Source of the DNA: Candidatus Terraquivivens tengchongensis
GTDB taxonomy: Archaea; Thermoproteota; Nitrososphaeria_A; Caldarchaeales; Wolframiiraptoraceae
Length of the DNA stretch: 64,000 bases
Reading direction: 5' to 3'
Assembly (NCBI GenBank): GCA_023261845.1
Contig: JALNJZ010000003.1
Coordinates: 64,001 to 128,000, forward strand
Shown: in pieces, positions 11,773-52,845 of the stretch
Position numbering within the stretch: position 1 is the first letter of the stretch
How the letters are laid out: each line of letters opens with the position of its first letter
Made by a program: the position numbers and the translations under genes
Notes under the pieces: model-generated
What the model saw: only the letters and a program-made list of their open reading frames with translations
Told to the model about the DNA's origin: nothing
Database searches by the model: none

Positions 11773-11880
11773 AACCAAGATACAAAATCGAAAATGGATG
11801 TTACATCAAACTATCAGCGGATACGAATTACCTGAATGCACGTCAATTAGGAAAGTTTTCATATAATGTAGAAAATTAAG

Positions 11881-11972
11881 TGGACCGGCGGGGATTCGAA
11901 CCCCGGACCTCGCGCAGTCTAGCCAAAAGCCGAGGTCGCCAGGCGCGCGATCTTCCGCTGATCTACCGGCCC
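11881..11972 (-). tRNA. trnA-GGC: tRNA-Ala(GGC) with 20-nt canonical 37/38 BHB intron (11917-11936)
   Basis: Acceptor GGGCCGG/CCGGTCC with G3·U70; anticodon stem CGCGC/GCGCG; loop CT-GGC-G; central BHB helix CTGG/CTAG; T-loop TTCGAAT; TTTAAA box about 30 nt upstream. Confidence 0.93.
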
Positions 11973-15271: not shown

Positions 15272-16036
15272 ATGTCCTCGGAAGATTTAGAAACTCCTAA
15301 GGAAAAAGGAAGCACCGGCGAGAAGCAGGCATCGGAGGCCCCTAAACCTGTTCTATCTTCAGGTAGCTTCCTCTTAGTAGACTACATGATAAGAATCAAA
15401 GAAACCGGTGAACTTGTTGACACAACCTCGGAGAAGGAAGCGAGAGAGGCAGGTATCTATGATGCTTCAAAGCTTTACGAACCCAGGTTGGCGATAATCG
15501 GTAAGGGCATGTTACTCAAAGCAATCGAGGACGAATTAGTCACAATGTCTGTTGGCGAGTCAAAGACGTTTGAAATCTCACCAGAAAAGGCCTTTGGCCA
15601 GAGGGACCCAACAAAGGTTAAGGTTTACCCTATCAGGAAGTTCAAAGACGTCGAGGCACCGCTGGTCGTAGGTGCTAGGGTTAACATCAATGGAAAAGAG
15701 GGCATAATACGTTCTATAGGTTCTGGAAGAGTCCAGGTGGATTTCAATCCGTATCTTGCTGGCAAGACACTCGTCTGTAACGTTACCATAAAGAAGATCA
15801 TAACTGACGACAAGGAAAAGGTCCAGCAGATATTGCATAACAGGCTACCGGATGTAGATATTCAAAAATTTACTATTGAGCTTGCACCTCCGGAGGTGGT
15901 CATTACCCTGCCAGAGGAAGCATATCTTCTGCCAAACCTGCAGATAGCCAAGAGACTCATAGCTAAAGAAATTCAGGAGAACATCCAAGGTATAGAAAGG
16001 GTAAAGGTTATCGAGCTTTACACGAAGCAGACATAA
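15272..16036 (+). CDS. Long FKBP-type peptidyl-prolyl isomerase (SlyD-like)
   Basis: VDY…DTT, PEKAFGQRD and DFNPYLAGKTL, plus the archaeal C-terminal domain. Confidence 0.9.
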   Translation: MSSEDLETPKEKGSTGEKQASEAPKPVLSSGSFLLVDYMIRIKETGELVDTTSEKEAREAGIYDASKLYEPRLAIIGKGMLLKAIEDELVTMSVGESKTFEISPEKAFGQRDPTKVKVYPIRKFKDVEAPLVVGARVNINGKEGIIRSIGSGRVQVDFNPYLAGKTLVCNVTIKKIITDDKEKVQQILHNRLPDVDIQKFTIELAPPEVVITLPEEAYLLPNLQIAKRLIAKEIQENIQGIERVKVIELYTKQT

Positions 16037-44036: not shown

Positions 44037-45347
44037 TTAATCTGAAGATCTTAGCTCAAACTTTGCGCCTAGGCTGGCAAGGTCTTCAAGAAAATTCGGG
44101 TAAGATACGCTCGCGGATTCTGCTCCTATTACTGTGCACCCTTCCTCCAGAATAAGTCCTAAGAGACAATAGGCCATGAAGAGCCTATGGTCACCTCTTG
44201 GGTCGAGTACGGCATGTTTAACCAGTTTGCCCTGCGTTATGCTTAACCCATCCGTCGACTCTCTTACGTTCATTCCGATCTTAGAAAGAGTATGGGCAAG
44301 GGCGCTGACCCTATCGCTTTCCTTAACCCTTGCATGCTCTACGCCAGTTATCTCGAGCGTCCCTTCACACTTAGTAGCTAAGACTGCTAGGACTGGCAAA
44401 AGATCTGGAGAATCGGATAGGTTAAAGCTACCACCTCTAAGCTTTCCACTTCCACTAACCATTACACGTCCAGAGCCGTAATCCAATTTAACATTAGCCC
44501 CCATCTTGATAAGTATATCAACTATAGCAGCATCAGCTTGCGGTAAATCTTGACTAAGCCCCTCAACTGTAACTGAACCGTCTGTCATGAGCGCCGCGAC
44601 CATCATGAAGGAGGCGAGTCCAAAATCCCCCGGCACTGTGAAACGTGCGGGCTTAAAATTCTGTTGTGAAGGAATGTGAAAGACTTTATACCCTTCTCTT
44701 TTTATACGAATGCCGAACTGCTCCAGTACGTTTATGGTTGAGTCAACATAAGGCCTCGAGACAAGGTCTCCTTGTATTATGAGCGTCGTATCGTTTAGGG
44801 CCTTTGGTGATGAGAAGAGTATAGACGATACGAACTGGGATGATATGCTGCCAGTCATCCAAGCATTGCCGCCCTTTAACCCGCTACCTTTAACAATTAT
44901 GGGTGCACAACCGTTGAGTCTCGTAGACCAGCACTCCCCTCCGAGCATGTTAAGGGCATCGAGTAGCGGTTGCATCGGTCTTCTCCTTATGCTCTCATCA
45001 CCTGTGAGGACTACGTACCCATCTTTGACTAAGCAGCTCACACCAGTCATTATCCTTAACGTAGTTCCAGAATTCTGAACGTTCACAACATCATCCGGTA
45101 CCTTAGGTGTTGAGAAACCACTGATGATGAGCCCGTCCCCCTCTTCAATTATGGATGCACCGAATTTCTTACACGCGTTAATCGTAGCGATTACATCATT
45201 GGATTTTGAAACGTTTTTTACGACACACTCACCATCGGTCATAGAGGCTGCTATTATCGCCCTATGGCTGTAGCTTTTGCTGGGAGGTGCCCGTACTCTA
45301 CCCGATATTACCGACGGTCTAATTAAGACCTGCAACGGAATCACCAA
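44037..45347 (-). CDS. aroA: EPSP synthase (3-phosphoshikimate 1-carboxyvinyltransferase)
   Basis: PPSKSYSHR, NSGTTLR, RRPM, SSQF, KESDR and DHR. Confidence 0.96.
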   Translation of the reverse strand: MVIPLQVLIRPSVISGRVRAPPSKSYSHRAIIAASMTDGECVVKNVSKSNDVIATINACKKFGASIIEEGDGLIISGFSTPKVPDDVVNVQNSGTTLRIMTGVSCLVKDGYVVLTGDESIRRRPMQPLLDALNMLGGECWSTRLNGCAPIIVKGSGLKGGNAWMTGSISSQFVSSILFSSPKALNDTTLIIQGDLVSRPYVDSTINVLEQFGIRIKREGYKVFHIPSQQNFKPARFTVPGDFGLASFMMVAALMTDGSVTVEGLSQDLPQADAAIVDILIKMGANVKLDYGSGRVMVSGSGKLRGGSFNLSDSPDLLPVLAVLATKCEGTLEITGVEHARVKESDRVSALAHTLSKIGMNVRESTDGLSITQGKLVKHAVLDPRGDHRLFMAYCLLGLILEEGCTVIGAESASVSYPNFLEDLASLGAKFELRSSD

Positions 45348-46197
45348 CCCATGAATAGGCTTTCTTATTATTCGGTTTGGCTATTATAAGTTCGCACCCT
45401 TTTTCACTTAACATATTAGCAACATCGCTTACCACATCTTTTTTACATACAGCGGCGATGGCAGGTCCAGTGCCGGATAGGCCGGCAGCTAAGGCTCCTG
45501 CTCTTATGGCATCCAAAGTCTTCTTCATGCTGTAGTTTAACGCTGCCGCATGAAGAATGCCGTTAAGTGTTAGGGCTCTCCAATATTCCCCGTTCATGGA
45601 CATCTTATACGCCTCCTCAACAAAGGATGCGATAGGCTTGAGTGCATTTTTATCGAAAAACTTAGTATAGCTTTTCAATTCTGGGACGAGCAAAACGACG
45701 ACAAGGTCCTCTGGAGCTTCAACCCTCCTCATAAGCTGCCTCTTCAAGTTATCTGTGACGACTATACCGCCATAATAGCTAGCACATGCATCATCGTACG
45801 CGCCAGTTATAGTAACACCAGCTTCGATTGCGGCATCTACTGCTATGTTTAATATCTCAGCATCACTCAAGTTTAAGCCCGCAGCCCTTGCCGTAGCCAG
45901 AACTATGGCATTTGCGGCTGCGCTGGAACTCTTCAGTCCTCTACCGATAGGTATATTCGATCTTATTTCGACATAAGCCCCACAATCCATCTGTGCTAGC
46001 TTCAAGATCTTTCTTACCGCCGCCTTTGCAAGTGTTGTATCCTCGTCTGGGTTTTCCTTTATCACCACGTCTATATCTCTGCCACCTATCTCCACCGTAG
46101 CCTCTGTGTAAAGGTCGATGCCCATTGCCGCTCCCTTACCGATTGATATAGCGTTAACGATCGTTATGGCACCGTGCGCCCTAGCAGTCGCCTTCAT
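45319..46197 (-). CDS. aroK: Archaeal (GHMP-family) shikimate kinase
   Basis: AITIVNAI, GLKSSSA, TGAYDD and GLSGTGP. Start at MKATA (46197) overlaps the aroE stop; the ORF track over-extends. Confidence 0.93.
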   Translation of the reverse strand: MKATARAHGAITIVNAISIGKGAAMGIDLYTEATVEIGGRDIDVVIKENPDEDTTLAKAAVRKILKLAQMDCGAYVEIRSNIPIGRGLKSSSAAANAIVLATARAAGLNLSDAEILNIAVDAAIEAGVTITGAYDDACASYYGGIVVTDNLKRQLMRRVEAPEDLVVVLLVPELKSYTKFFDKNALKPIASFVEEAYKMSMNGEYWRALTLNGILHAAALNYSMKKTLDAIRAGALAAGLSGTGPAIAAVCKKDVVSDVANMLSEKGCELIIAKPNNKKAYSWVGDSVAGLN

Positions 46198-47066
46198 ACA
46201 AAACGACCTATTGTCTTGATGGCAACACTCTTCATAACCTCTATCGGCGGCTCTAAAGACGTCCACAGCTTAAAGGACTCTGCAGCCTGAAAGACCAGCA
46301 TGTCAAGCCCGGAGACACATGTAGCGCCCGCAAGCTTCGCCTCTTTCAGAAGCATAGTTTCGGGAGGATTGTATACCATATCCATCACGATAGAGCCGCT
46401 CGGTATCTGCTCCTTCCTAAGTAGCGAGTGCTCAATATTCGGCCACATGCCAACTGGTGTCGCGTTGATTATAACACTGCAAGCTTTAGCAATTGCGGGT
46501 AATTCGTTGATAGAAAGTCCCATACCTTTTGCAGAAATTTTAATTCTTCTTTTAAGGAAGTTCGCAAGTCTACGGGCCCTTGAAGGTGTACGACTAACAA
46601 ATGTTATGCGATTACAACCAAGCCTGGCCAACGCTAGCGCAGCGGCAGAAGCGCCTCCGCCTGCACCAAGGATTAACGCTTCATGACCGCTTATTGCATC
46701 TTTGTACGGCATGAGAGCATTCATTACGCCTGAAACGTCTGTGTTGTATCCAACCATTCTATCCTTCTCGATCACGACGGTATTCACCGTCTTTATGATT
46801 TTAGCATCATCTGCAAGTTTATCCAAAAACCTCACGACCCTCTGTTTGTATGGTATCGTTACGTTAAAACCTGCCGCTCCTAGAGCCTTAAGGCCTCTGA
46901 TCGCGTGTCCAAGTTCTTTTTCTTTTACATCAAATGCGATGTAGAAGTAATCAACGTTCATGTGATTAAAAGCAGCGTTGTGAATAGCTGGTGATATCGA
47001 ATGCTTCACCGGTTGCCCGATGAGACCTACAAGTCTTTTGTTACCAGAGCGTGTTTGTGCTGACAT
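46194..47066 (-). CDS. aroE: Shikimate dehydrogenase
   Basis: HSISP, NVTIPYK, NTD, GAGG, NATPVG and DMVYNP. Confidence 0.96.
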   Translation of the reverse strand: MSAQTRSGNKRLVGLIGQPVKHSISPAIHNAAFNHMNVDYFYIAFDVKEKELGHAIRGLKALGAAGFNVTIPYKQRVVRFLDKLADDAKIIKTVNTVVIEKDRMVGYNTDVSGVMNALMPYKDAISGHEALILGAGGGASAAALALARLGCNRITFVSRTPSRARRLANFLKRRIKISAKGMGLSINELPAIAKACSVIINATPVGMWPNIEHSLLRKEQIPSGSIVMDMVYNPPETMLLKEAKLAGATCVSGLDMLVFQAAESFKLWTSLEPPIEVMKSVAIKTIGRFV

Positions 47067-47072
47067 CTTAGA

Positions 47073-47774
47073 TCACTTTCCACAGCAGCTCGATGAAAGC
47101 ATACGGATTATTTCCTTCGCCTCAGTGATACTGAGTTGGCCGGGCGCCGTAGGTGCTCCGGGTAACGAGACGTACATGAAGGGCGCACCCAACATTACTG
47201 AGAGAAAACGCGACAAGATTCCTTCTACTCCCATGCAAAAGGCGATGAGCCTATGCTTATCATATGTATGATATAATGAGAGAATCCTGAGGTTATCGCT
47301 GAAGGACCTCGCCATGGTTACTACTTTTGTTATACTTCCAGATTTCATGGCTAAGTCGACTATCCTTCGTAGCTCATCGCTTTCCGGTGTCTTTTCAAAG
47401 TCGTGCCATGAAACTATCAAGGCCGTGCCCGTACCCATCAACTCTTTCGATAAATCTTGAAAAATGGGGGAACGAAGCTCTATGTCAACGTACGCCGGAC
47501 CTTCCCTACTCAGTCGCTTTAAAATCTTTACCCTTTCTTCTTCGTTACCCTCAAACAGTCCGTTCTCATAGCTCGGTCTGAGCGTCAACACCAATTTACC
47601 CATATAGGGTCTTAATGTCGAGCTTACAACGTTAACGTCCAACTCCTTCAAGTAATCAAGTCTAACCTCTACGATATCTGCACCGCTGTTTATTGCTTTA
47701 ACCACCGCATCTTTCAAGGATTGTATATCTCTCCCAAACGTCGATACGCATAGTTTGAACCGTTCCGTACTCAT
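47073..47774 (-). CDS. aroD: Type I 3-dehydroquinate dehydratase
   Basis: EVRLD, TLR, DIEL, SWHDF, FCMG, SR and TAPGQ. Confidence 0.94.
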   Translation of the reverse strand: MSTERFKLCVSTFGRDIQSLKDAVVKAINSGADIVEVRLDYLKELDVNVVSSTLRPYMGKLVLTLRPSYENGLFEGNEEERVKILKRLSREGPAYVDIELRSPIFQDLSKELMGTGTALIVSWHDFEKTPESDELRRIVDLAMKSGSITKVVTMARSFSDNLRILSLYHTYDKHRLIAFCMGVEGILSRFLSVMLGAPFMYVSLPGAPTAPGQLSITEAKEIIRMLSSSCCGK

Positions 47775-47812
47775 GAATATTACTTCACCAGTTCTTATGG
47801 TTAATCGGCATT

Positions 47813-48871
47813 TTACCTCTCTACTATGAATTCGTCAACTGACACCCCAAAATGTCTGGCCTTCTCTTTACTTATGTGCGCCAATACTTTATCGCCCGGC
47901 TTAACCTCGGTTACCGAGATGGGCTTGCCATCTGGCCCTACGAGCCTTATGGTCTCAGCATTTTGCAAGATAACTGTCCCTTCTTCACCGTCAGCCTCTG
48001 CCTTGATGAGTCTCAGCGGCCTCCTTTCTATCTTCACCCTACCGACTGTTGTTGGTCTTGCTGAGCCTTGTGTATTAACCACTAAAACTCTGTCACCTGC
48101 CCTTATCTCCGACAAATACTTAGTTCCACCAGTAGGGGTTAGAATGTAACTATGTATCGCACCCGCGTTTACTCTGAAGGGTCTTGGCTCCGTGAACGAT
48201 GAACCTAAAGATTCGCTATGGATGAGAAACAGAAACCCTGCCTTACTTCCGACGAGCATCCCCTCCCCTATCGATAAAATAGAGACCGTATCAATACATG
48301 CCCTATCTCCTATCCCAACATCCTTAACATCCGTAATTTCGACTGGAGATAACTGAACCCTTGTGATGTAGCTGATCACTTCGAAGATTCTACCAACCTC
48401 CTCTTTGTTCCTTGGCTTGAATAAGACGGCGTCAACGCCCCTCTCTAGTATACCGTACATAATCTCAACCTCTTCTGGACTACTAACCTTCGCAATGAGC
48501 TTCGTCGATGTTTTTTGCAGATACGCGATTATGTTCTCTAGTGGGATTATTTTCCAGTCCTTTGTGTCAACTATCAAGGCTTCAGCACCAAGCTTAGCCG
48601 CGGAGACTAACTTCTCTACGTCGCCATAGTTTAGCACGACGGCATGTACCGCAAACCTCTTCGCTTGCGGCACATCTTTACCAATAGGTACAACAAGAAC
48701 GTCGCCGGCTGGCGAGTCTGAGTATATCGTAAGCCTTTGCCTAAACTCTAGTGGAACGTTAGCAGGGTCGCAGTAGTATGTGGTGATCCCTTTTGATAGG
48801 GCTTCCCTAAAGATTTCGTCGTTCCAGTCTCTTAAATCTATGCAGATCTCTTTTTTACTTAGCGGAAGCGT
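47813..48871 (-). CDS. aroB': 3-dehydroquinate synthase II (AroB')
   Basis: WKIIPLEN, GDRACID, RPFRVNAG, QNAETI and ARHFG. The frame stays open 66 codons upstream of the ORF-track start (48673), to an ACG at 48871 that sits 7 nt after GGAGGTG. Confidence 0.9.
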   Translation of the reverse strand, partial: TLPLSKKEICIDLRDWNDEIFREALSKGITTYYCDPANVPLEFRQRLTIYSDSPAGDVLVVPIGKDVPQAKRFAVHAVVLNYGDVEKLVSAAKLGAEALIVDTKDWKIIPLENIIAYLQKTSTKLIAKVSSPEEVEIMYGILERGVDAVLFKPRNKEEVGRIFEVISYITRVQLSPVEITDVKDVGIGDRACIDTVSILSIGEGMLVGSKAGFLFLIHSESLGSSFTEPRPFRVNAGAIHSYILTPTGGTKYLSEIRAGDRVLVVNTQGSARPTTVGRVKIERRPLRLIKAEADGEEGTVILQNAETIRLVGPDGKPISVTEVKPGDKVLAHISKEKARHFGVSVDEFIVER

Positions 48872-49652
48872 CTTTGAGCACCTCCAGAGCCTCTTTGACC
48901 GTGTAGTCTTCGATTATTATGGCCCTGAGCGCCCTAGTTATCGCGAATGGGTTATCGTGCTGGAACACGTTCCTGCCTATTGCCGCACCGATAGCTCCGG
49001 CATCCATCGCCTCCCTTACCATCTTCAAAACTTCTAAGTCGCTTTCCGCTTTCGGCCCACCGGCTATGACTATAGGGACGGGACAACCATCCACGACCTT
49101 TCTAAATGTCTCTGGGCTGCCTATGTAGGGCGTCTTTACGATGTCTGCTCCAAGCTCAGCACCTATCCTCGCGACATGTGCGGCAACGTCGGGGTCGTTT
49201 GGATTCTTTATATTCTCACCCCTCGGATACATCATTGCTATGAACGGTACCTGCCATTCATCACACTCGTCAGCAAGCATTCCAAGCTTTCTCAACATCT
49301 TCGGCTCATCGCTGCATCCTATGTTGACATGAACGGAAACTGCGTCCGCCCCAAGCCTTAAAGCCTCTTCAACGCCCGAAACTCTCACTTTGAGGTTAGG
49401 CGATGGTCCTAAAGATGTGCTCGCAGAAACGTGCATTATGGTACCAACGTTCAAAGGTTTGGGCATAACCCTCAGTATGCCTTTGTGTGTCAAAACGGCC
49501 GTGGCTCCTCCGAGGCTAACCTTTTCTATCGTATCAAATATCTTGTCCAAGCCTTTAACCGGACCTATAGTAACTCCGTGGTCCATCGGTATGCATAACA
49601 TCCTTCCTTTTTCCGTTATCCTATTCAACCTGACCTGCTTTCCGAACACCAT
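48855..49652 (-). CDS. aroA': 2-amino-3,7-dideoxy-D-threo-hept-6-ulosonate synthase (AroA')
   Basis: PMDHG, HKG, AMMYPRG, ELGADIVKT, AGG and GRNVFQ; adjacent to aroB'. Confidence 0.92.
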   Translation of the reverse strand: MVFGKQVRLNRITEKGRMLCIPMDHGVTIGPVKGLDKIFDTIEKVSLGGATAVLTHKGILRVMPKPLNVGTIMHVSASTSLGPSPNLKVRVSGVEEALRLGADAVSVHVNIGCSDEPKMLRKLGMLADECDEWQVPFIAMMYPRGENIKNPNDPDVAAHVARIGAELGADIVKTPYIGSPETFRKVVDGCPVPIVIAGGPKAESDLEVLKMVREAMDAGAIGAAIGRNVFQHDNPFAITRALRAIIIEDYTVKEALEVLKDASAK

Positions 49653-49654
49653 GT

Positions 49655-50710
49655 CTACTCTATCCTCCCAGATGCATGTAGCAGCTCAGCCGTCAGTATC
49701 GCTATGCCGGCAGCACCCCTTATCGTGTTATGGCTAAGAACAAAGAACTTTAGAGCCCTCTCATCTTTTGCAGACCTTACCCTTCCAACGACCGCACTCA
49801 TGCCTGGAACGCTTCCAGCATATATGTCGAGCCTTGGTTGTGGTCTATCTTCCTCCTCCATCACGATTATCGGTCTCTCAGGAGCTGTAGGTAGCGCCAG
49901 CCTCTGTGGAAGGCCTTTGAATTCCGCTAGCACCCTTTTCGCATCTTCTACGCTCACAACTTTCTCTGTCTCGATGTAGACGGATTCTAAGTGTCCATCT
50001 ATCGTGGGAACTCTGGTACAACTAGCCTCGATGGCTATACGGGCTGACTCAATGGACCCGTCCTTAAACCTTCCCAGTATCTTCTGTGTTTCTTTTTCTA
50101 CCTTTCCCTCCTCGCCTGATATGTACGGTATAACGTTCCCGAGTATAGAAAGCGAAGGTACGCCTGGGAAGCCCGCACCCGAGACTGCCTGCATCGTAGT
50201 TACCACGACCTTCTTGAGACAATAAGCATCGTGCAATGGTTTAAGGGGCATGACTAGACCTACGGTTGTGCAGTTGGGCGTGGTTACTATGTACCCATCC
50301 CACTTCCTATTCTTTTTCTGAACATCTATTAACTCGATGTGCTCCGGGTTTATCTCCGGCACGATGAGCGGTACGTCTTTCTCCATCCTATGAGCAGAAG
50401 CATCGCTTACAACTGGGAAGCCTTCTTGCGCAAAAAGTGGTTCTGACTCATGAGCAGCTTCAGTAGGTAGCGGGGAGAACGCCAAGTCTGCATCAACATA
50501 TTTTGGCTCGTTCGGTACGACCTCCATATCCGCTACACTGGATGGAATATCGATCGGGTTCCCCCTCACTGCTTCTCCATACTTCTTACCGACAGATTCC
50601 TTCCCCGTTAGGCATGAGAGTTTGAACCATGGATGTCTCGAGAGTATGCTTACGTATCGTTGGCCGACCATTCCAGTGGCTCCTAACACGGCAACTTTAA
50701 TTTGTTTCAT
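49655..50710 (-). CDS. asd: Aspartate-semialdehyde dehydrogenase
   Basis: GATGMVGQ, PNCTT, QAVSGAG, RVP…GH and HNTIRGAAG. Confidence 0.96.
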   Translation of the reverse strand: MKQIKVAVLGATGMVGQRYVSILSRHPWFKLSCLTGKESVGKKYGEAVRGNPIDIPSSVADMEVVPNEPKYVDADLAFSPLPTEAAHESEPLFAQEGFPVVSDASAHRMEKDVPLIVPEINPEHIELIDVQKKNRKWDGYIVTTPNCTTVGLVMPLKPLHDAYCLKKVVVTTMQAVSGAGFPGVPSLSILGNVIPYISGEEGKVEKETQKILGRFKDGSIESARIAIEASCTRVPTIDGHLESVYIETEKVVSVEDAKRVLAEFKGLPQRLALPTAPERPIIVMEEEDRPQPRLDIYAGSVPGMSAVVGRVRSAKDERALKFFVLSHNTIRGAAGIAILTAELLHASGRIE

Positions 50711-51920
50711 TCAATTCCACCTCCAGATTTGCTTTTACAAGAGAGGCAGCTTTCTCCGCGTCTTTTGCGGACACGAATATCCTGATTGACGAACTTATAG
50801 TTACCAAACCGTAGATATTTATGCCACGCTGTGCGAGCGGTGCTACGACTTTATATATCAAGCCCGGACTCGTTTCGAGCATTCTACCGCTTACGCTTAT
50901 AGCAGACAGCCCCTCGAAAAAGCTTATGGCCTTACCCATGCCCGATTCCACAACCTCCTTATGCAGCTCATCTATTAGCTTGGTGTCCAAGTCCGTGTAA
51001 ATTATGATGGATTTTTCGCCGGTCGTTATATTGAGGATTTCACCGTTGTGCTTTTGAACAAACTCTACGACAGGTTTAACCATGGACGCACCGTCCGAGT
51101 TTCTTGAGAGTATCGTTATCATGGTTACTTTAGCCGGGTGTCTGCTGACTTCGAGCTTTGGAAGTGTGCCAATTATGACTGTTCCCGACTTCCCTAGACC
51201 TTCCATGCTAGATATTCTTAACTTGAGGTCCCCTGACAGATACCTCAACGCTTTCGAGTGAATGATCTTTGCACCACCTTCTGTTAAAAGTTTGGCCTCA
51301 TCTACGTCAAGCGTCTCTAGTATCTCGGCTTTGCTGACCTTATCCGGATCTCCCGAATATATGCCCTCAACATCTTTAATTAAGACAACTTCTGCAGCAT
51401 TTAGACAGCTGCCGAGCAATATGGCGGTCGTGTCACTGCCACCCCTGCCCAGCGTAGTTATCTTACCCGAAGTACTAACACCAATATATCCGCATACAAC
51501 AGGAACTTTGCCGGCCTCAATCAGTGGCAATAGTTTCTCTTTACATCTTTTCTCCGTCTCGTGATAGATGGGGTTTGCATCAAGATGTACATCGTCCGTT
51601 ATTATAGGCCAGTACTCGTTAGATGGGTCCACCAAGACAGCGTCGACACCAAACCTATTCAACGCAGCCGTGAAAAGTCTCGCGCTTGTCCTTTCACCCA
51701 TCGCCAAAATTTCGTCGAGCATGTCGGGTCGAATGTCCGGGTTAACATCTTTAGCTGTCTTCAACAGCTCATCAGTCATTCCCTTTAGCGCCGAGACCAC
51801 TACTACCAGTCCGTATTCCTTCAGCAGGTCCTTCACCCAGGACGCTGCCCTTTCAAGGGCTCTAGAGTCTTGGAGGACAGAGCCACCAAGCTTTACGACC
51901 ATTATATTTTTCATAGGCAC
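50697..51920 (-). CDS. lysC: Aspartate kinase with C-terminal ACT domains
   Basis: KLGGS, VVVSA, GE, TTLGRGGSDTTA and KDVEGIYSGDP. Confidence 0.94.
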   Translation of the reverse strand: MPMKNIMVVKLGGSVLQDSRALERAASWVKDLLKEYGLVVVVSALKGMTDELLKTAKDVNPDIRPDMLDEILAMGERTSARLFTAALNRFGVDAVLVDPSNEYWPIITDDVHLDANPIYHETEKRCKEKLLPLIEAGKVPVVCGYIGVSTSGKITTLGRGGSDTTAILLGSCLNAAEVVLIKDVEGIYSGDPDKVSKAEILETLDVDEAKLLTEGGAKIIHSKALRYLSGDLKLRISSMEGLGKSGTVIIGTLPKLEVSRHPAKVTMITILSRNSDGASMVKPVVEFVQKHNGEILNITTGEKSIIIYTDLDTKLIDELHKEVVESGMGKAISFFEGLSAISVSGRMLETSPGLIYKVVAPLAQRGINIYGLVTISSSIRIFVSAKDAEKAASLVKANLEVELNETN

Positions 51921-52085
51921 GACCTCCCTCCAAAGCTGTTAAAACACAGAAAGGAGAAGATGGCTTCAGAGAGAGGCGTCCGGCTCGCTATAGCGATAAT
52001 AGCGGTAGCCGGTCGTGAGGAAAAGGCGATCCCTCACGTTCGCCGCCTCTCTTTAGTAATTTGCATTCACGTTGGTTATTTAAAC
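51921..52085 (-). promoter_or_regulatory. Promoter and structured 5' leader of the lysC-asd-aro operon
   Basis: BRE/TATA GAAACGTTTAAATA ending at 52077; three-way junction AGAGAGGCG/CGCCTCTCT, CGTGAGG/CCTCACG, CCGGCT/AGCCGG; pyrimidine tract; SD GGAGGGAGGT. Confidence 0.7.
51966..52037 (-). CDS. Putative Tyr-rich leader peptide MRDRLFLTTGYRYYRYSEPDASL
   Basis: GTG 52037 preceded by SD-like GAGAGGCGG; 4 Tyr codons within 6 positions; TGA ends 46 nt before the lysC start. Not in the ORF track. Confidence 0.65.
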   Translation of the reverse strand: MRDRLFLTTGYRYYRYSEPDASL

Positions 52086-52179
52086 GTTTCGAACATACGG
52101 AAAATCCACGTCATTATAGCCATTATGTTGCCAGCTAAAACTTCTAAGCGTTTATATTTGAGGATACAACTAGGTGTAG

Positions 52180-52845
52180 TTGGTTTTAGAAAAGGAGGAT
52201 CAGCTAGCGTCCATGTCTAAAGGTAAGACGGGAAATTATGCTTGTGTCGTCCTTGTAAACGGAAGGGGTTACATGGGCGACAAGAAAGGTTTGGTGAAGA
52301 TAGCCGGGAGGCCCATGATCGAGTACGTCCTCGATAGCGTACCAGACGAGGTTACGGAATTGTTCGTATCGGTTGAGAACGAAATGCAGGCCGCAGCCTA
52401 CGGGCCTATATGCGAGAAGTACTTTGCTTCACTCATGAGACTGGAGAAAACTCAGTACCTGAACGAACATGAAAAGATAAAAGAGGTTCTGGAGAACGTT
52501 CCGGGTTCTAATATACTCGTCCTTCCTTGCGATATGCCGTGTATCACGTTAGAATTTACTTACTTCTTATTAGAGGCCTCTAAGAAATTCACAGCAGTAT
52601 TGCCTAGGATGCTGGATAATAACGTTGACTTCAGCTTAGCGTCCTATCAAGCCGAACCTTTTCTTGAGGCATTTAAAAAGTATCCTGAAATGCGCCTACC
52701 TGAGCTCATTAAGAAACTTAGGAATGTGCTTTATGTATCAACTAATGCCCTAAGGATGTTTGACAGCAAGCTTAGTATTCTATACAGGGTATCTTCTGCG
52801 GCGGACGTACCAAAAGTGGAGAACATACTCCGCAACAGGTTATAA
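52180..52845 (+). CDS. MobA-like NTP transferase (divergent)
   Basis: MGDKKGL…GRPMIEYV and LPCDMP; the canonical LAGG loop is replaced by LVNG. Confidence 0.7.
   Translation: MVLEKEDQLASMSKGKTGNYACVVLVNGRGYMGDKKGLVKIAGRPMIEYVLDSVPDEVTELFVSVENEMQAAAYGPICEKYFASLMRLEKTQYLNEHEKIKEVLENVPGSNILVLPCDMPCITLEFTYFLLEASKKFTAVLPRMLDNNVDFSLASYQAEPFLEAFKKYPEMRLPELIKKLRNVLYVSTNALRMFDSKLSILYRVSSAADVPKVENILRNRL

Follow-up and report, generated by a model that had tools for sequence, protein, structure and literature searches.

The stretch of DNA considered here (the window) comprises 64,000 nucleotides (nt) of the archaeon Candidatus Terraquivivens tengchongensis (contig JALNJZ010000003.1, positions 64,001 to 128,000, of assembly GCA_023261845.1, which consists of 14 contigs and 1.22 Mb). 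Its minus strand carries an eight-gene operon that begins with lysC, and the subject of this paper is the 5' leader of that operon: a short, tyrosine-rich open reading frame (ORF), together with RNA strands that can pair around it, which may form a ribosome-mediated sensor of aromatic amino acid supply. Pfam assigns the eight genes to aspartate kinase, aspartate-semialdehyde dehydrogenase, DeoC-family aldolase (AroA'), 3-dehydroquinate (DHQ) synthase II, DHQ dehydratase, shikimate dehydrogenase, GHMP kinase, and 5-enolpyruvylshikimate-3-phosphate (EPSP) synthase. We take the operon to be the archaeal AroA'/AroB' route to EPSP plus the pair of enzymes that supply its substrate, aspartate semialdehyde; the Pfam assignments agree with an earlier, sequence-only reading of this DNA, which had named the same route. 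The elements of the locus, numbered by window position and listed in the direction of transcription, are:

52077-52084, minus strand: TATA box TTTAAATA with an adjacent stretch resembling a transcription factor B recognition element (BRE); a block without variation in the genus (7 of 7 species).
52044-52052, minus strand: S1, the purine-rich 5' strand of helix P1, at the 5' end of the transcript; predicted by folding, with 9 of 9 pairs invariant in 8 sequences.
51966-52037, minus strand: leader ORF, GTG plus 22 codons plus TGA, from translation; no insertion or deletion (indel) in 7 of 7 species and one metagenome variant.
52014-52038, minus strand: P2, a predicted 9-base-pair (bp) hairpin with the start codon in its 5' strand and codons 5-8, including Phe, in its 3' strand.
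51980-52012, minus strand: P3, a predicted hairpin with the four Tyr codons in its stem and loop; its register varies among species.
51963-51978, minus strand: S2, a pyrimidine-rich anti-Shine-Dalgarno (anti-SD) strand predicted by folding, made of the last four leader codons, the stop codon, and 3 nt beyond.
51937-51962, minus strand: a pyrimidine- and U-rich linker, the loop of the sequestrator hairpin, containing a run of 3-5 U.
51922-51936, minus strand: S3, the Shine-Dalgarno (SD) strand of lysC, tandem GGAGG-like, the partner of S2 in the sequestrator; pairs kept in 8 sequences.
44037-51920, minus strand: operon lysC-asd-aroA'-aroB'-aroD-aroE-GHMP-type shikimate kinase (aroK)-EPSP synthase (aroA), from ORFs and Pfam.

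The TATA box, the ORF with 4 Tyr in 6 codons, its peptide, and lysC all lie on the minus strand where the sequence-only reading had placed them. Tyr is encoded by codons 11, 13, 14, and 16 and Phe by codon 6, and the TGA stop occupies 51968-51966. The SD-like sequence of the leader, GAGG, lies within S1, 8 nt ahead of the GTG. LysC, an aspartate kinase of 407 residues, starts at a GTG at 51920. The 3' end of the 16S rRNA in this genome reads ...GGAUCACCUCCU, and by this measure S2 resembles the ribosomal anti-SD, while S1 and S3 are SD-like. Thus, S2 has two alternative partners: it can pair with S1 as helix P1 (51978-51970) or with the lysC SD strand (51977-51963). The pyrimidine-rich tract that had been noted past the leader stop is present as the linker at 51962-51937, which within the genus is conserved in composition and variable in sequence and length.

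Several lineages serve for comparison: g1 is the genus of the window, and G000 is the window's genome; g5, g3, g2, and g4 are other genera of the same family; g11, g12, g13, and g8 belong to a second family of the same order; f14, f21, and f6 are families of the same phylum outside the class; and f3 is another family of the order, with low GC. Leader ORFs across these lineages were chosen for their aromatic content. A DNA search of 41 related genomes finds the intergenic region itself in G000 and all 6 other g1 genomes, and in 0 of the 34 genomes of other genera. The gene order lysC-asd-aroA' is more widely conserved, being present in genera g1, g3, g5, g11, g12, g13, and g7, and in one metagenome-assembled genome (MAG) of the Nitrososphaerales.

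An orthologous aspartate kinase (about 53% identity) is encoded by the 8 genomes of g5 and the 3 of g3; in g2 and g4 only a 30%-identical paralogue is present. All 11 of the g5 and g3 orthologues are preceded by a leader of unrelated sequence that nevertheless contains a TATA box, a 5' SD-like strand, a start codon, and an ORF of 23, 24, or 27 codons. Phe, Trp, and Tyr codons crowd the second half of this ORF and share the core motif FWSY. In the g5/g3 alignment the start column is kept (ATG in 10, TTG in 1), the frame and the position of the stop are held through indels, and the stop codon at that one position is TAA in 8, TAG in 2, and TGA in 1. A second aspartate kinase, of about 465-480 residues and 31% identical to that of the window, is found in every genome of the family (contig C3:1027-2034 in G000, outside the window); it presumably serves the Lys/Thr/Met branch, leaving the lysC of the window for the aromatic route.

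Counted over the last 14 codons of the ORF, aromatic codons number 4 in all 7 g1 genomes, 8-9 in 8 of 8 g5 genomes, 8 in 3 of 3 g3 genomes, 7 in both g11 genomes, 9 and 6 in the two g12 genomes, and 7 in the single g13 genome, whose aromatic frame lacks a canonical start codon. Across the five genomes of g11, g12, and g13 the ORF ends 38-53 nt ahead of lysC, and the distance from leader to lysC is 44-45 nt in g1 and 41-44 nt for the clearly aromatic leaders of its sister genera. In a sample of 401 genomes from the phylum, 38 have a lysC orthologue (E 1e-80 or better), 7 of them outside the class, and each of these 7 has an upstream ORF with aromatic codons. The last 14 codons contain 9 and 8 aromatic codons in the two f14 genomes, 10 in the one f21 genome (including a run of seven Tyr), and 3-6 in the four f6 genomes, where the signal is weak. 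An ORF ahead of lysC-asd-aroA' in the Nitrososphaerales MAG has 5 (4 Tyr and a final Trp). Beyond their aromatic content, the peptides of different lineages cannot be aligned.

One distant relative, L076 (G135:C1:481770-482300, about 50-130 nt before lysC), has a leader ORF with seven consecutive Tyr codons, then Cys-Phe-Phe and the stop. Directly behind the stop comes an 11-bp hairpin without mismatches, and after it a U-rich run that lies just ahead of the lysC SD. Judged from its sequence, it is the most bacterial-looking candidate attenuator of the set. A different situation is found in g8 (13 genomes; L042-L053), where lysC is not followed by asd or aroA'; at L046, the single annotated g8 locus, a gene for deoxyhypusine synthase comes next, in convergent orientation. 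Aromatic codons number 5-6 in 3 of the 12 g8 upstream regions that could be read. A few g8 species have a short upstream ORF that ends in two Tyr codons, which hints that the g8 lysC paralogue stays linked to the aromatic pathway despite its separation from the operon. In one further family of the order, a lysC orthologue is found in 0 of 19 genomes.

When random windows were taken from the same loci with the same picking rule, 0 of 1291 reached 8 aromatic codons in the last 14 and 8 reached 7, compared with at least 8 in 12 of 27 and at least 7 in 15 of 27 cases upstream of lysC. None of 1025 short upstream ORFs in G000 exceeds 6 aromatic codons. Phe, Trp, and Tyr together account for 34% of leader codons (248 of 730) and 8.4% of the G000 proteome; the other two frames of the same spans hold 52 and 56 aromatic codons of 730, a contrast inflated by the choice of ORFs for their aromatic content. 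Of 1497 short ORFs that precede long ORFs across G000, only the leader of the window packs 4 Tyr into 6 codons. A cognate-codon ORF of the kind that marks leader-peptide attenuators is thus present strongly in the relatives and weakly in the window. The sequence-only reading had itself held that it would fall if relatives lacked the ORF or its aromatic enrichment; instead, all 6 other g1 species keep the ORF, and the other genera are richer.

Within g1, hardly any position varies from the TATA box through to lysC: the TATA-box block is unchanged across the alignment, and the DNA upstream of it is rich in indels. Column identity over the leader RNA in the 7 species is 95%, compared with 71% for the entire intergenic alignment. 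Pair counts given here for g1 refer to 8 sequences, the 7 species plus one metagenome variant. That variant comes from a single scan of metagenome contigs with a 23-letter pattern, which returned 5 loci, 4 of them identical to known species and 1 differing by one base; because it is nearly redundant, the scan adds almost no power to detect covariation. Seven sequences end the ORF with TGA and one with TAA. Tyr codons 11, 14, and 16 are conserved, and codon 13 is Trp in two species.

Folding of the 96 nt from 52055 to 51960 reproduces the three-way junction proposed in the sequence-only reading, with P1 of 9 bp, P2 of 9 bp, and P3 of 6+6 bp, joined by segments of 5, 1, and 1 nt. Its energy is -46.5 kcal/mol, compared with a mean of -28.2 (sd 3.3) for shuffled sequences (z -5.6; 0 of 200 shuffles as stable). 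In this fold P1 pairs S1, and with it the GAGG of the leader, to the last four codons of the ORF, and P2 pairs the start codon to codons 5-8. The alternative, in which the 3' strand of P1 pairs with the lysC SD, is also predicted and is longer than had been claimed: a sequestrator of 15 pairs between 51977-51963 and 51936-51922. Junction and sequestrator are nearly equal in energy, as seen from the swap of the minimum-energy fold of the whole 5' untranslated region, in which the sequestrator replaces P1 at 37 C and the junction is the minimum at 70 C. The leader thus has what an attenuator is expected to have, two mutually exclusive predicted folds (the P1 junction and the S2:S3 sequestrator), one of which would block the first gene.

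Both folds are compatible with the g1 sequences. The P1 pairs are invariant; P2 has two pairs with compatible changes on one side and one pair broken in one sequence; and P3 has two pairs with compensatory changes and several broken cells, its region forming in one species (G001) a perfect 13-bp hairpin in a different register. Overall, 94% of junction cells are paired in the 8 sequences. Sequestrator cells are paired in 100% of cases in 8 of 8 sequences, with 4 one-sided changes, all compatible. A covariance model of the junction finds one match per genome, at the g1 lysC leader only, in 7 of 76 genomes of the class. Rfam, searched with 51500-52600 at E values up to 10, gives 3 weak matches (E 0.61-9.9), all below the gathering threshold and none on the leader, and ARAGORN predicts no tRNA in the leader.

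Comparison of the predicted folds across lineages separates two architectures. In Type I (g1, g11, g12, g13), an anti-SD strand, which begins with the leader stop or lies immediately past it, can pair with either a 5' SD-like strand or the lysC SD; the duplexes, with energies of -17 to -27 kcal/mol, are built from different sequence in g11, g12, and g13, so that the alternative pairing read from the window recurs there without shared sequence. In Type II (g5, g3, f14), the aromatic codons themselves are paired to a 5' strand that holds the SD and start of the leader (-17 to -32 kcal/mol; z -1.9 to -5.4 relative to mononucleotide shuffles), and a GC-rich hairpin begins directly behind the last aromatic codon in g5 and g3, with the stop codon in its loop, or right past the stop in f14. 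A sequestrator of the lysC SD was sought by folding in g5, g3, f14, and f21, and none was found. In all lineages the leader start region is paired with leader codons, which suggests that translation of the leader would be limited to the time of transcription. The end of the aromatic cluster coincides with the foot of the next hairpin in all lineages except g1.

RNA evidence comes from X4, a hot-spring metatranscriptome of which about 5% of the run was read. It contains 6 reads of at least 99% identity, all in the orientation of lysC if the library is of the standard stranded kind; 4 lie on the lysC start and 2 on the leader. The upstream boundary of the leader reads is at about 52053, some 27 nt from the centre of the TATA box, with none further upstream, though this is a matter of two reads. 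The reads fit, weakly, a transcript that starts at S1. Depth falls to zero between leader and lysC, and 6 reads in all are too few for this to count as attenuation. A contig, X1, spans only 51650-51772, and runs X2 and X3 yielded 0 reads from about 3% of each, a share too small to bear on expression.

Together, these findings point to the leader as the 5' leader of the lysC-asd-aro mRNA and as a ribosome-mediated sensor of aromatic aminoacyl-tRNA supply that acts through the lysC SD, a reading to which we give a probability of roughly 0.6. Its two halves differ in strength. For the leader family as a whole, it is very probable that a ribosome slowed by scarce charged aromatic tRNA provides the signal, given the aromatic codon content, the conservation of the ORF, and the match to the pathway. 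The support comes mainly from relatives, whose leaders appear far clearer than that of the window, and for the window's own leader the same sensing role is held with somewhat less assurance. The output step proposed below is tentative, its odds falling a little short of even. The earlier suggestion that stalling at Tyr codons may control either lysC initiation or termination has fared in parallel: its sensor part is upheld by the recurrent aromatic ORFs, and its output part is not, given that a modelled footprint closes the lysC SD and that no terminator is present.

In the proposed mechanism, transcription would start about 25 nt after the TATA box, at S1. A ribosome would load on the weak SD of S1 and the GTG only during RNA synthesis, because P1 and P2 later close S1 and the start codon. 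A shortage of charged aromatic tRNAs would slow this ribosome at the Tyr codons (Phe, Tyr, and Trp in the relatives), and its position and dwell time would choose the partner of S2 at the end of the ORF. Pairing of S2 with S1 in the three-way junction would leave the lysC SD free; pairing of S2 with S3 in the sequestrator would hide it. Expression of the entire operon would then follow lysC translation, both directly and, probably, by way of transcription-translation coupling. We infer translation of the ORF, with stalling as its signal, lysC initiation as the controlled step, and starvation as the condition that switches the operon on. A kinetic variant would give this expected direction. S2 emerges about 30 nt ahead of S3, so S1 would capture S2 if the ribosome lags, and a closely following ribosome would shield S2 until S3 exists; for this variant to work, P1 would have to form with a stalled ribosome still between its strands. 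Other candidate outputs are action of FttA/aCPSF1 on the pyrimidine tract, protection from 5'-to-3' decay by the stalled ribosome, and cleavage of a post-stop hairpin.

A classical terminator does not fit these leaders. A hairpin followed by a U tract was sought in every lineage and was found only at L076. The g1 hairpins have no directly adjoining U tract, and the U run of g1 lies within the sequestrator loop, 28-35 nt past P1; thus, a terminator of the trpL type is not present. The spacing of 38-53 nt between stop and lysC may also be too short for a trpL-like decision point.

This and several further observations weigh against the reading just described. The SD of the window's leader matches the anti-SD at only 4 bases, and its start codon is buried in the 9-bp stem of P2. 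It is the least aromatic leader of the set (5 aromatic of 23 codons), and its 4 aromatic codons among the last 14 are matched by 174 of 1291 control windows (13.5%). Substitutions in the g1 ORF are mostly non-synonymous, and two of the four Tyr codons of the window sit in a palindromic stem, so RNA structure alone could preserve them. The g1 sequences appear to fit both folds and the ORF alike, and constraint on the ORF is not separable from constraint on structure within the genus. The covariation check put forward in the sequence-only reading gives the two compensatory pairs of P3 and little else: the junction score is not significant (68 of 500 shuffles equal the observed value), and P1 and the sequestrator show no two-sided changes at all among the 8 g1 sequences. 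In family f3, 3 genomes have lysC-asd-aroA' without such a leader ORF. Finally, trpE of G000 has no leader ORF. At one f3 locus (L057, in G029), four Tyr and one Phe codon occur in a row about 60-120 nt before lysC, with no start codon and upstream of an apparent TATA box; the frame is absent from both sister genomes and may be a decayed leader.

Modelling of a stalled ribosome bears on the output step. The ribosome was represented by holding the RNA unpaired between 18 nt upstream and 12 nt downstream of the first A-site nucleotide, and the probability that the lysC SD is unpaired was computed by nearest-neighbour equilibrium folding at 37 C and 70 C. Such folding excludes tertiary stacking in the junction, steric effects, and kinetics, and so provides a weak test. 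In g1, a footprint on the Tyr codons cuts accessibility of the lysC SD to 0.0-0.2 (free RNA, 0.02-0.34), and accessibility goes up (0.3-0.6) only when the ribosome sits between codon 17 and the stop. Footprints on the aromatic codons reduce accessibility in g5 and g3 and leave it unchanged in f14 and f21. The only lineage in which footprints on the terminal Tyr and Phe codons open the lysC SD is g12. Within the limits of an equilibrium model, then, the stall footprint frees the downstream SD, as in ermC or poly-Cys systems, in g12 and not in g1; at face value, the modelled result would contradict a simple ermC-like or mycobacterial-Cys-like scheme for the window.

Other explanations draw on the same evidence. 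The g1 junction might be a riboswitch-like regulatory RNA that binds a ligand or protein, or a thermosensor, with the ORF a relic or a structural by-product. The great stability of the fold and the near invariance of the RNA (95% versus 71% column identity in the 7 species) would suit such a role, as would the survival of the P3 hairpin through compensatory changes and a shift of register, an aromatic content far below that of the relatives, Tyr codons too distant from S2 for a stalled ribosome to expose the lysC SD, and a minimum-energy fold that differs between 37 C and 70 C. However, an aptamer core shared across taxa or genes, one mark of a riboswitch, is not found in the leader: no Rfam family covers it, and the junction is single-copy and confined to g1 and thus represents no conserved aptamer class. 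Joining segments of 5, 1, and 1 nt leave little space for the other mark, a ligand pocket. Moreover, the start, frame, and stop of the ORF are kept in 8 of 8 sequences through a change of TGA to TAA, and the size of the ORF, its aromatic positions (from codon 11 on), and its distance to lysC match those of the sister-genera leaders. This explanation is judged unlikely.

It is also improbable that the ORF is translated without sensing anything, either as a constitutive coupling device that opens the lysC SD or as a 5'-terminal helix or ribosome that guards against 5'-to-3' decay. Such a role would account for the finding that the lysC SD opens only with a ribosome on codons 17 to stop in g1 or on the last 1-4 codons in g12, and the pairing of the start region with leader codons in every lineage fits a single-round, co-transcriptional device. 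Yet it leaves unexplained both the specificity for Phe, Tyr, and Trp (34% versus 8.4% of the proteome) and its recurrence in sequence-unrelated leaders, always before the aromatic pathway operon. A functional aromatic micropeptide, or an independent small RNA gene ending in the U-rich tract, is very improbable. The ORF is indeed conserved, a run of 3-5 U follows the junction by 28-35 nt, and read depth is zero between leader and lysC (6 reads in total). However, the peptides of different lineages share nothing alignable save aromatic content, the U run is short and variable, and no TATA-like sequence lies between junction and lysC, which indicates that lysC is transcribed through the leader.

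A few other features of the locus and genome deserve mention. A plus-strand ORF of 116 residues at 51870-52220 was considered as an antisense gene and rejected, being broken in 3 of the 6 other g1 species. Divergent from the operon, 52180-52845 (plus strand) encodes a MobA-like nucleotidyltransferase and is followed by a gene for a protein related to 5-aminoimidazole ribonucleotide (AIR) synthase; the start region of the MobA-like gene is conserved in the genus, but the length of the spacer that separates the two promoters varies greatly. At 11880-11972 (minus strand), ARAGORN predicts a 93-nt tRNA-Ala (GGC), which is long for a tRNA and may contain an intron. Elsewhere in G000, the 1497 short upstream ORFs include no other convincing cognate-codon leader. 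An aromatic-looking ORF on contig C1 lies upstream of the TATA-like box of the next gene, which looks from its sequence like a polyamine gene, and was rejected as a leader. On the same contig, at about 15350-15440, a GC-rich inverted repeat of about 80 nt lies just upstream of a TATA-like box; the gene behind it resembles tyrosyl-tRNA synthetase (KMSKS motif), and the repeat may terminate the preceding gene or encode a small RNA.

Archaeal gene regulation is mostly credited to transcription factors, and to our knowledge ribosome-mediated attenuation by cognate-codon leader peptides has been described only in bacteria. No archaeal leader-peptide attenuator was found in the open-access papers and preprints searched, in agreement with the earlier statement that no Tyr-sensing leader has been characterised in archaea. 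The words attenuat-, leader peptide, and riboswitch are absent from a review of archaeal coupling (PMC8116511). In the available passages of the uORF4u paper (PMC10219788), upstream ORFs are said to act in archaea too, and those passages give no archaeal amino acid example.

Chances are about even that the leaders described here form a widespread archaeal family of amino acid-sensing leader ORFs, distributed among several families of the phylum to which Caldarchaeales and Nitrososphaerales belong, that control the AroA'/AroB' operon and would be the first leader-peptide attenuators described in Archaea. In such a family, the pioneer ribosome would set the pairing of an anti-SD strand with either a 5' SD-mimic or the SD of the first gene and would thereby couple or uncouple RNA polymerase and ribosome. 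If this is true, archaea also use the translating ribosome as a metabolite sensor, and the leader offers a compact natural test case for archaeal transcription-translation coupling and SD-based control of initiation. It would also suggest that leaders for other amino acids could be found by the same comparative screen. With several architectures that combine one sensor with different helices, the output mechanism could be dissected by comparison.

The leader is judged to be a probable form of leader-peptide attenuation whose SD-mimic/anti-SD design is unlike that of the classical bacterial examples. It resembles trpL, pheL, thrL, and hisL of E. coli in having a short ORF rich in codons for the end product, mutually exclusive helices, regulatory codons within a hairpin, and, as proposed here, a reliance on simultaneous transcription and translation. 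Unlike the trpL type, however, the leader of the window has no terminator hairpin directly followed by a U tract, and its competing helices are made from two SD-like strands and one anti-SD strand. Furthermore, its switch strand has its partner at the 5' end of the transcript, ahead of the ORF, and not past the regulatory codons, and the archaeal host has a different RNA polymerase and different termination.

A second bacterial system is aroR-aroF of C. glutamicum, where a Phe-Tyr-Phe leader peptide is reported to precede the operon that encodes the entry step of the shared aromatic pathway (PMC11802643, citing Neshat et al. 2014). As far as that account goes, the two share an aromatic leader peptide upstream of an aromatic pathway operon. 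They differ in that the C. glutamicum system is bacterial, is described as transcription attenuation, and controls 3-deoxy-D-arabino-heptulosonate 7-phosphate (DAHP) synthase, whereas in the window lysC and asd feed the AroA'/AroB' route. The two are unrelated in sequence.

Translational attenuation of the ermC type offers another comparison. A related bacterial case is that of the mycobacterial polycysteine short ORFs, the 'Cys ribulon' (bioRxiv 10.1101/834739). For g12, the poly-Cys/ermC model is the most fitting one, as the Tyr and Phe codons at the end of the leader directly adjoin the anti-SD strand there. In the window, 4 codons separate the last Tyr codon from that strand, and thus, unlike in ermC or poly-Cys leaders, a stalled ribosome would not cover it. 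To the ermC and poly-Cys design the archaeal leaders add an upstream SD-like strand, which competes for the anti-SD and closes the leader's own start.

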